This document shows positions 44,366-46,152 of a stretch of DNA of 64,000 bases, one piece after another. The DNA lies in NCBI GenBank assembly GCA_964395845.1, contig CAYNCG010000015.1, positions 356 through 64,355 on the forward strand. The letters are read 5' to 3'. The notes beneath the pieces are model-generated. The model did no database searches and was not told the DNA's origin. It saw only the letters and a program-made list of their open reading frames with translations. This stretch comes from an uncultured Isosphaeraceae bacterium (GTDB lineage: Bacteria > Planctomycetota > Phycisphaerae > Phycisphaerales > SM1A02). The position numbers were made by a program, and so were the translations under genes. Every line of letters starts with the position of its first letter. The stretch's first letter is position 1.

Positions 44366-46152
44366 CAGTTCCCTCCTTCCAGAGCCGCGATGGTCATCGC
44401 AAGTTGGGCACGCTGGTTTTCATCGAGCGATGTGACCCAATGGGCGAAGCTTGCCGAATCGGCGTGGCCGGTCACTGCGAGGATCAGGTCGAGCGACGCG
44501 CCCTTTGCGGCAGGCTCCGCTGCGGATTGGCCTGCGGACTCCCAGTTCGACCCAAGCGGGGCGGGAACCTCTCCGCAACCTTCGCAGAACTCCAGTGCAC
44601 ACCAAGCACCCCAGTCGCCCAGCAGAATCGAAAGATCAGCCGAATCGACATCTTGCGAGTAATCGAGATCGGCAAAGCACGAACAGAGCTCGCCGCCGCA
44701 GGATCCCCACGCGCCAAGGAGAACGCCCAAGTCCGACGATCCAACAATCCCGTCGAGGTCGAGATCTGCCGGGCAGCCGTAAGGAATGAGAAGAATGGCG
44801 TGCAGATCGTTGTCTTCGCTCGTATCGATCGCCGTTGCGGACATCCAGCCCTTCGCGTTGACATCGGTGATCGAGAGGATGTCCCAGTCGCAGTCACTCA
44901 GGTGCAACGAAGTCGAGAGCGTTGCTTGAAATGACGCTGTGGTGGAAGGTCGCCACCACATTACGCCTTTATTGAACTCAAGCGTTTCGCGCCCAACAAC
45001 CAGACTCGAACTCCCGTTCGAGTCAGTGGGTGCAATCGAAAGCGCCTCCGAGCGAGAAGCTGCACTCAGCGGCGAGATCAGTCCGAGGCTCGTCGCGATC
45101 CCTTGGCTGGACCAGAACGCAGCTCTTGAGAAGCACGACAGGCTCGGATCGACATACGCGCCGACCGACTGGGACAGCCCGTCGATCGCATAGATCCGGG
45201 CGTTCCAGGCGTCGAGGTCGAGCGGTCCGGATGAGAGGAAGTCCTCGCGAACCGCCGTAGGGGGAACATTGGTACCAGTCGCGGGCCACCGCACGGCGTC
45301 GATCGCTGCTGGTTCGGCGACGCAGTCGATCTCGGGGGTGCCGATACCACCCGCCTGTCCCAAGGATGTTCCGTTGTAGCCCACTCCCTGCATGGAAGGT
45401 GCCGACGCTCCACCAATGTGTGGAGGGGTTGCGGCTGCGGACGCCAGAGCCACCCCGAAGGCGGCTGACGAGGTGCCTGTCAGCGGATCAAGAATGGCAA
45501 GTGTTCCGGTCGGCTGTCCGAGGACATGGTAGAAGCCACGGCTCGACGGCGACCCGAACGATCCGGACCGGCGCAGTCCGACGACATGGGCGGATTGTGT
45601 CAAGCTGGACTCGCTTACCGCTCGGGCGACGCCAGTGACGGTCCCGTCGCCGATTGCGAACGCACCGATGAGGGACGATGGACCGAAACGCCAAACGAAA
45701 GGCGCGTTGGTGAAGTCCGCTAACTCCTGCTGGCCGACAACATCGCCATTGTTGTTGATGCCCCAAGCGGCGCCGGGCCCGGTCGGCGTGAACTCCAGCG
45801 TCGTGCCGTTGAGCCACGAGAGGTTGTTCAGAAGAACAGCCTCGCCCGCATCGAGGCCGAATCGGCCGCAGAAGCTCCAGATCCACGGGCTATCTGGACA
45901 GCCCGGGCCCGGAGGTCCTCCCGGCGTCCCGTGCGTGTCGCTGGAGTAGCCGACCATGTCTCCACAGTCGTTCAGCGATGTCGCGAAAAGGTAGCTCCGA
46001 TCAGAGCAGCCGACGGGGCGTTCGACGCGAATCACGAAGTAGCGAGTCCTTGGATTCTCGTAGGACTGCCCGTGGCTCGTTGCCGTCAGAAGCGTCGTCA
46101 CGCTACACGCAGAGAGAGAGAGAGAGAGAGAGAGAGAGAAGGTCCGAAGCAT
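44362..46152 (-). CDS. Secreted protein with dockerin-like tandem module near the C-terminus
   Basis: The start was set at the ATG (MLRTFSLSLSLSLSACSV...). Signal-like N-terminus. DLDLDGIVGSSDLGVLLGAWG ... DLDYSQDVDSADLSILLGDWG. Confidence 0.7.
   Translation of the reverse strand: MLRTFSLSLSLSLSACSVTTLLTATSHGQSYENPRTRYFVIRVERPVGCSDRSYLFATSLNDCGDMVGYSSDTHGTPGGPPGPGCPDSPWIWSFCGRFGLDAGEAVLLNNLSWLNGTTLEFTPTGPGAAWGINNNGDVVGQQELADFTNAPFVWRFGPSSLIGAFAIGDGTVTGVARAVSESSLTQSAHVVGLRRSGSFGSPSSRGFYHVLGQPTGTLAILDPLTGTSSAAFGVALASAAATPPHIGGASAPSMQGVGYNGTSLGQAGGIGTPEIDCVAEPAAIDAVRWPATGTNVPPTAVREDFLSSGPLDLDAWNARIYAIDGLSQSVGAYVDPSLSCFSRAAFWSSQGIATSLGLISPLSAASRSEALSIAPTDSNGSSSLVVGRETLEFNKGVMWWRPSTTASFQATLSTSLHLSDCDWDILSITDVNAKGWMSATAIDTSEDNDLHAILLIPYGCPADLDLDGIVGSSDLGVLLGAWGSCGGELCSCFADLDYSQDVDSADLSILLGDWGAWCALEFCEGCGEVPAPLGSNWESAGQSAAEPAAKGASLDLILAVTGHADSASFAHWVTSLDENQRAQLAMTIAALEGGNW
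46111..46138. repeat. (AG)14 / (CT)14 dinucleotide microsatellite inside the 5' coding region of gene 44362..46152
   Basis: agagagagagagagagagagagagagag read directly. It encodes the FSLSLSLSLS stretch of the signal peptide. Confidence 0.95.

Follow-up and report, generated by a model that had tools for sequence, protein, structure and literature searches.

Phase variation driven by repeats is a textbook feature of host-adapted pathogens, in which it is usually explained by immune evasion. The multi-copy opa genes of Neisseria gonorrhoeae and N. meningitidis, for example, carry (CTCTT)n in their leader-peptide codons and switch independently, yielding combinatorial expression. Opa phase variation is listed in a review that also recounts the first genome survey of Haemophilus influenzae, which found 12 tetranucleotide-repeat genes (PMC11868660), and the oipA gene of Helicobacter pylori is regulated by slipped-strand mispairing at CT repeats in its signal-peptide region, with many patterns among isolates (PMC10564699). 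Here we describe a (CT)14 tract within the signal-peptide codons of gene 44362-46152, which encodes a predicted secreted protein of an uncultured planctomycete of the Phycisphaerales. The tract lies in a 64,000-nucleotide (nt) stretch of DNA (hereafter the window; positions 356-64355 of contig C15 of genome G000), and the assembly to which it belongs comprises 4.8 Mb in 62 contigs, with 68.3% guanine plus cytosine (GC) and 95% completeness. Comparison of the tract with its alleles, paralogues and orthologues leads us to regard it as probably a hypermutable simple-sequence repeat whose length turns translation on or off.

The tract is a perfect (CT)14 on the minus strand (Tandem Repeats Finder: 46111-46139, period 2, 14.5 copies, 100% matches), and gene 44362-46152, of 596 amino acids, is the only long open reading frame (ORF) at this site. 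Read on the minus strand, the sequence is ...GGGAAAAGACGC ATG CTT CGG ACC TTC TCT CTC ... TCT GCG TGT AGC GTG ACG, with the tract starting 14 nt past the A of the ATG (46152-46150). The predicted N-terminus is MLRTF(SL)4S-ACSVTTLLTATSHG/QSYENPRT (the slash marks cleavage), in which the tract encodes the front of a Sec-type signal peptide. The original prediction, made from the letters of the window, had placed a perfect 28-nt (CT)14 at 46111-46138, 15-42 nt downstream of the ATG and encoding (SL)n in a signal peptide; sequence and Tandem Repeats Finder agree on the repeat, the distance matches the 14-nt offset in 1-based counting, and the translated frame gives the (SL)n. The elements of the proposed switch are as follows.

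46111..46138, minus strand: (CT)14 tract encoding (SL)n, the proposed slipped-strand switch (sequence, Tandem Repeats Finder, shuffles, Markov model and alleles).
46150..46152, minus strand: ATG start codon, in frame (ON) at 14 units (sequence and frame simulation; this sequence, with this start, is the representative of its 90% protein cluster).
46157..46164, minus strand: weak Shine-Dalgarno (SD)-like GGGAAAAG, 8 nt before the ATG (sequence).
46069..46152, minus strand: predicted signal-peptide coding region, M1-G28, with cleavage inferred at SHG/Q (alignment with paralogues).
46103..46105, minus strand: TAG stop, 2 codons past the tract at 13 or 16 units (simulation; ORF 46103..46384 ends here).
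46098..46100, minus strand: TGA stop, 4 codons past the tract at 12 or 15 units (simulation and sequence).
44362..46152, minus strand: the putatively switched gene, 596 amino acids, with signal peptide, all-beta body, dockerin-like double Ca-loop and helical tail (sequence and model).

A tract of this length is far outside what the composition of the genome would produce: 100 dinucleotide-preserving shuffles of the window yielded no match to it with 3 mismatches allowed, and under a first-order Markov model for all 4.8 Mb of the genome, about 1e-9 tracts of at least 14 units would be expected per genome. AG/CT tract lengths in the genome are bimodal, falling from 1,258 tracts of 3 units to 62 of 4, 5 of 5 and 1 of 6, above which they occur only at 10, 14, 14, 20 and 27 units.

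Frame outcomes were simulated for 11-17 CT units. The ATG is in frame with the 596-amino-acid ORF at 11, 14 and 17 units, and the intermediate lengths run into one of the two stops listed above, in keeping with the earlier claim that gain or loss of a single unit would shift the frame. The repeat reads as Ser-Leu or Leu-Ser in every frame and as Arg-Glu in the reverse orientation, which explains why coding at tract loci always runs along the pyrimidine strand; because the repeat also lies in the part of the protein predicted to be cleaved off, length changes would leave the mature protein unaltered. Under the proposed mechanism, slipped-strand mispairing during replication would add or remove CT units; at 8, 11, 14 or 17 units translation from ATG 46152 would be in frame and would make the secreted, propeller-like protein with its dockerin-like module, and at other lengths it would end 2 or 4 codons past the tract, with any in-frame length change confined to the signal peptide.

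The exact 596-amino-acid protein is present in a public protein collection, where it forms a 90% cluster with three others of 592, 594 and 598 amino acids. These four alleles are 94-98% identical, and their sole indel is the number of SL pairs. At the DNA level, the alleles comprise (CT)8 (L044, JGI 3300071636), (CT)17 (L045, JGI 3300076802) and the (CT)14 of the window, and the 594-amino-acid member (P0003) would have about 11 units, judging from its protein. Over flanks from approximately -75 to +180, no difference separates L045 from the window, and L044 has a few substitutions (two bases from approximately -75 to the ATG). With the only indel in the tract and the flanks conserved, no other site of the locus is nearly as mutable as the tract, and repeat number, which the original prediction had suggested comparing, is not invariant among relatives (8, 14 and 17 units in DNA). 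Two pattern scans of metagenome contigs for the tract flanks gave no match, the allele-bearing JGI samples apparently lying outside that collection, and a search of genome contigs for related loci returned only a distant dockerin-module match and the G002 metagenome-assembled genome (MAG) itself. The (CT)8-allele contig also carries an IS110-family transposase just downstream of the partner gene described below (L044, 4313-5296) and diverges from the window more than 75 nt upstream of the ATG, so the neighbourhood of the operon is not fixed.

The closest parallel to this arrangement is found in the Hop genes of H. pylori (oipA/hopH; sabA, babA), which likewise have a CT unit a few codons past the ATG, within signal-peptide codons; in both systems the frame depends on how many units are present, and in H. 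pylori both On and Off alleles are known from natural isolates. The H. pylori products, however, are beta-barrel outer-membrane proteins, whereas the gene in the window is predicted to encode a secreted, propeller-like protein that carries a dockerin-like module, and it has a partner gene beside it. H. pylori is also a host-restricted, AT-rich pathogen that is not known to have a MutS1/MutL repair system, unlike the free-living aquatic Phycisphaerales bacterium described here, which has a GC content of 68% and both mutS and mutL, and in which the tract gene family additionally uses CA, CACT and 7-nt units.

A repeat scan of the genome took in all 62 contigs. It recovered five dinucleotide tracts of at least 10 units, all of them AG/CT, and three tetranucleotide tracts of at least 8 units:

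C1:302273: AG/CT, 27 units, (CT)27, family B.
C18:3067: AG/CT, 20 units, (CT)20, family A.
C15:46466: AG/CT, 14 units, (CT)14, the window tract, family A.
C16:69046: AG/CT, 14 units, (TC)14, family A.
C4:138903: AG/CT, 10 units, (TC)10, family B.
C38:31670: (CACT)11, family A.
C19:81775: (ACTC)9, family A.
C31:24516: (ACTC)8, family B.

One further repeat, (GTGA)5, is short and precedes an L7/L12-like gene. Each of the eight long tracts is located 3-18 nt past a start codon, at the N-terminus of an ORF of 560-600 amino acids that encodes a secreted protein, and these ORFs form two paralogous families: A (C15, C18, C16, C38 and C19), with the motifs NP[RK]TRY...LNDCGD, and B (C1, C4 and C31), which begins F.VNALTG.D.N.GTSW and has a beta-helix-like appearance. 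Both families end in a dockerin-like module and a common helical tail, ..LGF....F..W...L.

Relative to the nearest start with an SD-like motif, two loci (C15 and C18) are ON and five (C16, C19, C1, C4 and C31) are out of frame (OFF); the state of C38 depends on the start, being OFF if a GTG at -5 is used. Two ON of eight is what independent random phases would give. No alternative in-frame start exists at C19, C1, C4 or C31, where a stop codon 0-20 nt ahead of the tract closes the ORF frame. In simulation, a change of a single unit switches every one of the eight loci between ON and OFF, with one unit more or less restoring the frame at those that are OFF, and the ON-state N-termini of all eight resemble Sec signal peptides. 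The original prediction had likened the window tract to a contingency locus, and that comparison gains from seven further tract genes, five of them clearly out of frame.

Alleles of two paralogues were also recovered. At C16, the genome of the window has 14 units and P0011 has 17 (both OFF, and both called from a spurious upstream ATG), whereas P0012 (580 amino acids, MARLSLSLSLSSTLLV...) corresponds exactly to the product simulated for 12 units read from the proximal ATG, which is ON; alleles in both states thus coexist naturally at this locus, among sequences that are >90% identical and differ by a unit number that is not a multiple of three. In the C4 cluster, all 14 members were called from a GTG past the tract, and DNA from five assemblies has 10, 10, 10, 10 and 15 units, representing two different OFF frames. 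For the C18 and C1 paralogues, no exact protein match was found in the public collection with the candidate starts tried. Overall, tract length varies between near-identical assemblies at three loci. Both states were found at C16 and between the metagenome orthologues L047 and L048 (below), and all four alleles of gene 44362-46152 are ON. Under the proposed mechanism, switching within a single clone would be rapid and reversible, and the protein would be lost in the OFF state.

With at least eight such loci, the system resembles Neisseria opa in consisting of multi-copy surface-protein genes, each with its own pyrimidine-rich repeat in signal-peptide codons; it is unlike opa in that the opa unit is a pentamer, the proteins are unrelated, Neisseria is an obligate human commensal or pathogen, and switching has been measured there and is deduced here from sequences. 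It likewise resembles H. influenzae loci such as lic1 (CAAT), where the ORF has a tetranucleotide tract close behind its 5' end and a genome has several such loci; three paralogues here match this with their (CACT)n/(ACTC)n tracts. Motifs and gene functions are different, and H. influenzae is host-adapted. In the literature, no paper was found linking Phycisphaerae with phase-variable genes and no report was found for Planctomycetota, and a survey covering Planctomycetes, phase variation and simple sequence repeats made no claim of planctomycete phase-variable genes. The kind of switch is already known; novelty lies in the phylum, in the protein families and in how varied the motifs are.

We also assessed recurrence of the arrangement in 40 related genomes and in metagenome contigs; relatives of the bacterium are MAGs labelled Phycisphaerae or Phycisphaerales. 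Among the 40 genomes, full-length family-A homologues occurred only in the same genus. Their states, and those of metagenome orthologues, are listed with the SD-like motif and start codon of each:

G002 orthologue (53% identity): (CT)9, ON, AAAGGAG-ATG.
G003 homologue: (CA)23, coding (TH)n, ON, GAAGGAG-ATG.
G005 homologue: no tract, ordinary signal peptide.
L046, a 77%-identical metagenome orthologue: (CACT)5 plus degenerate units, OFF, GGAGAG-GTG.
L047: CT tract, OFF, GGCGGAG-ATG.
L048, an orthologue of L047: CT tract, ON, GGTGGAG-ATG.

Stronger SD motifs thus stand at the same place in orthologues of gene 44362-46152. (CT) tracts of at least 9 units were present in 10 of 41 genomes, concentrated in the bacterium's own genus and in genus g19 of another family, and the same layout of start and tract was seen wherever a long ORF came after a (CT) tract: G005 has two tandem (CT)13 genes, both ON; a family-B gene of G004 has (CT)9 and is OFF; and two g19 genes with the common leader ATGAACAGATTGCGAACACATTTCG-(CT)n are both OFF. 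(CACT) tracts of at least 6 units occurred only in the genome of the window and in G034, a member of a third family with two genes that have a common ATGCACAATT-(CACT)n, both OFF. Two other family-level lineages of the order, g19 (G026, G036 and G040) and g26 (G034), have the same layout, mostly in the OFF state. With several unrelated motifs at the same site in few lineages, the switch appears recurrent and lineage-restricted. A further (CT)14, at G006:C10:7372-7399 (L015), precedes a gamma-glutamyltranspeptidase-like lipoprotein gene, whose likely start comes approximately 100 nt after it; lying in a leader and not in an ORF, it is possibly a different use of the same repeat.

Ratios of non-synonymous to synonymous substitution rates (dN/dS) were computed by the Nei-Gojobori method and are rough values, with dS near saturation in the deeper pairs:

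Alleles of gene 44362-46152: 0.16-0.22.
Gene 44362-46152 (ON) versus L046 (OFF): 0.06.
L047 (OFF) versus L048 (ON): 0.31.
Two OFF family-B paralogues: 0.17.

No value is near 1, and the ratios indicate that OFF copies are under purifying selection. Because dN/dS is low in pairs that include OFF copies (0.06-0.31), we rejected the possibility that the OFF paralogues are decayed pseudogenes.

Several observations weigh against a selected switch. All four known alleles of gene 44362-46152 are in frame, with length steps of three units only and no OFF allele, which fits an ON-selected gene or plain purifying selection, so the switch is unproven from this locus alone; the SD motif ahead of its ATG is weak (GGGA); and the C4 paralogue is OFF in five of five assemblies, which could mean that the gene is being lost. 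The genome encodes MutS and MutL, and in model bacteria mismatch repair lowers dinucleotide-repeat slippage. Tract lengths, moreover, were read from metagenome assemblies, where mixed lengths can collapse to one consensus. The in-frame alleles (as expected under purifying selection against frameshifts), the persistently OFF C4 paralogue and the repair genes would also suit a functionally neutral, length-polymorphic coding microsatellite, in which additional Ser-Leu pairs are tolerated by the signal peptide and allow length to drift, copies with a frameshift are either mutants (deleterious or neutral) or genes in the course of loss, and selection maintains no switch. We consider this improbable, as unrelated motifs (CT, CA, CACT, a 7-mer and possibly poly-C) arose at the same few codons in many paralogues and three family-level lineages, tract lengths are bimodal with none between 6 and 10 units, OFF copies retain intact ORFs of 560-600 amino acids at the dN/dS values given above, and C16 has both states among closely related sequences.

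That the lengths and out-of-frame states might be artefacts of short-read metagenome assembly or sequencing stutter appears very unlikely. All of the data are indeed MAGs or metagenome contigs, and assembly was troubled at some repeats (an N gap at C4:181973-182190, a poly-C contig end at C15:121665, and contig C46 of G036, which begins inside a CT tract); the same 10-unit tract, however, was assembled four times independently at C4, tracts of 28-54 nt are shorter than a read, length differences sit between the conserved flanks, and the same layout is present in a hybrid long-read MAG (G002, an OPERA contig) and in a 4-contig genome (G005). We give as little weight to translation starting downstream, in which case the tract would sit in a 5' leader and its length would modulate transcription or the initiation of translation and not the frame. 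Such a start is what gene callers chose in P0005, P0007, P0008 and all members of the C4 cluster, and the G006 tract does lie upstream of a likely gene start; at gene 44362-46152, though, it would yield VTTLLTATSHG/Q, a stretch with no charged n-region and of insufficient length for a signal peptide, whereas ON-state products have canonical signal peptides. SD motif and ATG are conserved 3-8 codons before the tract in orthologues and paralogues, placing the start upstream of the repeat, and all four alleles keep the ATG frame (a chance of approximately 0.04 if unconstrained, in a sample biased by how the alleles were found).

Returning to the translational switch, at least eight such loci in one genome (a 'phasome') would give a population with many combinations of surface or secreted proteins, the likely benefit being bet-hedging against phages, grazers and changing attachment substrates. 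A broader proposal, which we put forward more tentatively and judge to fall somewhat short of an even chance, is that free-living, mismatch-repair-proficient, GC-rich Phycisphaerales keep an independently switching phasome of secreted propeller or beta-helix dockerin-like proteins, in which the switch was re-invented many times at the same few signal-peptide codons (CT, CA, CACT, a 7-mer and perhaps poly-C).

Further paralogues that have the common tail bear other tracts in this position that look unstable. At C4:181973-182190, (GCGGTCG)8, an N gap and (GCGGTCG)8 encode (RRSAVGG)n just before a family-A-type signal peptide; the gene has a partner gene downstream, a 7-nt unit would also shift the frame, and the N gap suggests an array length beyond the resolution of the assembler. 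Contig C15 ends in 54 G (coding-strand poly-C; C15:121665-121718) immediately ahead of a family-B paralogue's signal peptide; contig C21 begins with 52 G (C21:1-52); these may be a real homopolymer switch lengthened by poly-G reads from two-colour chemistry, or pure artefact. A C12 run occurs at C5:165417-165428, near the 5' end of a paralogue that offers no clear start codon and has the common C-terminal tail and a partner gene. Within the window, a 13-base homopolymer (G13, minus strand) at 38653-38665, among only a few homopolymers of at least 11 bases in the genome, lies approximately 170 nt upstream of the ATG at 38482 of a minus-strand gene for a secreted protein with the signal peptide ...GGALLALAVLACGAAAQA, and could be a promoter-located variable tract.

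Cleavage of the gene 44362-46152 product at SHG/Q was predicted by alignment with paralogues ending ALG/QGYPNPRT, AFA/QAYPNPRT and AYA/QQTTNPK. Codons 13-16, just after the tract (window 46105-46116), read L-S-A-C and fit a lipoprotein lipobox. The Cys is kept in four of four alleles; the paralogues and the G002 orthologue are without it, and we rejected lipoprotein processing in favour of cleavage by signal peptidase I, which these alignments make the more likely.

Searches with the whole 596-amino-acid protein gave no Pfam match (E up to 0.1), and NCBIfam gave one match below its cut-off, a single HAF repeat at residues 129-154 (TIGR02913, 18.6 bits, cut-off 22.65, E 1.3e-3). The AlphaFold model, built on an alignment of 8 sequences, has low overall confidence (predicted local distance difference test (pLDDT) score 54.7, predicted template-modelling (pTM) score 0.63), with residues 40-260 confidently all-beta; its best PDB fold matches are assorted beta-propellers with TM-scores of only 0.3-0.4, which support a description as 'beta-propeller-like' only, and fold matches to a viral glycoprotein and a lyase were given no functional weight. 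Two C-terminal features follow the all-beta body:

44608..44775, minus strand: dockerin-like module, residues ~460-515, DLDLDGIVGSSDLGVLLGAWG...DLDYSQDVDSADLSILLGDWG (duplicated DLDGDG..DL..LLG.WG motif).
44365..44505, minus strand: C-terminal helical tail, ..LDLILAVTGHADSASFAHWVTSLDENQRAQLAMTIAALEGGNW, common to ~15 paralogues of both tract families (helices 554-590 in the model).

The term dockerin-like, used in the original prediction, holds at the level of motif resemblance and not as a Pfam assignment: residues 455-528 had no Pfam match (E up to 10), and the gathering score of Dockerin type I (PF00404) was not reached. The double-loop module nevertheless had >100 separate tblastn matches in the genome contigs and appears to be a standard C-terminal tag of secreted proteins in this organism. 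The divergent neighbour 46365-47177 has a weak Dockerin_1 match (16 bits against a cut-off of 22.9), and the 210-nt spacer separating it from gene 44362-46152 (window 46153-46400) includes a degenerate CCTCTTG/CCTCTGCACTCTTA repeat at 46362-46398 that resembles CACAGAGG-type elements at 34.7 kb and 48.6-49.0 kb.

Immediately downstream lies the partner gene:

43757..44362, minus strand: partner gene, 201 amino acids, with a signal peptide and a PEP-CTERM-like tail (sequence).

Its C-terminus is laid out as expected for PEP-CTERM (IPAPP, then a hydrophobic helix, then RRARGRRSR), and the genome has two exosortase (Exosortase_EpsH) genes. The earlier description of this gene as PEP-CTERM-like is not confirmed by hidden Markov models, since neither the partner nor its last 41 residues matched NCBIfam or Pfam. 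The partner ATG overlaps the stop of the tract gene (TGATG) and has a strong SD of its own, GGAAGGAGGG, at 44371-44380. Partner homologues come after at least 10 family-A-type genes in the genome and after every orthologue elsewhere, and after no family-B gene. Co-silencing of the partner in the OFF state, which the original prediction had thought probable, is plausible, via polarity or lost coupling.

Because gene callers start most tract genes past the tract or at spurious upstream codons, their signal peptides are missed, and the encoded proteins look cytoplasmic or truncated in annotations. The loci described here form a complete multi-gene repeat system in an uncultured planctomycete with intact mismatch-repair genes, with ON and OFF alleles visible in public metagenomes, and they offer concrete sites whose ON/OFF ratios could be tracked in time-series metagenomes. 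Together, these results suggest that the bet-hedging known from pathogens also works in open-water communities, where phages, grazers and particle attachment are the likely pressures. If the phasome reading is true, it would count as evidence that evolvability is selected for in bacteria other than host-adapted pathogens, and selection would probably come from phages or grazers for which these proteins, or the PEP-CTERM-like partner that they bind, serve as receptors.

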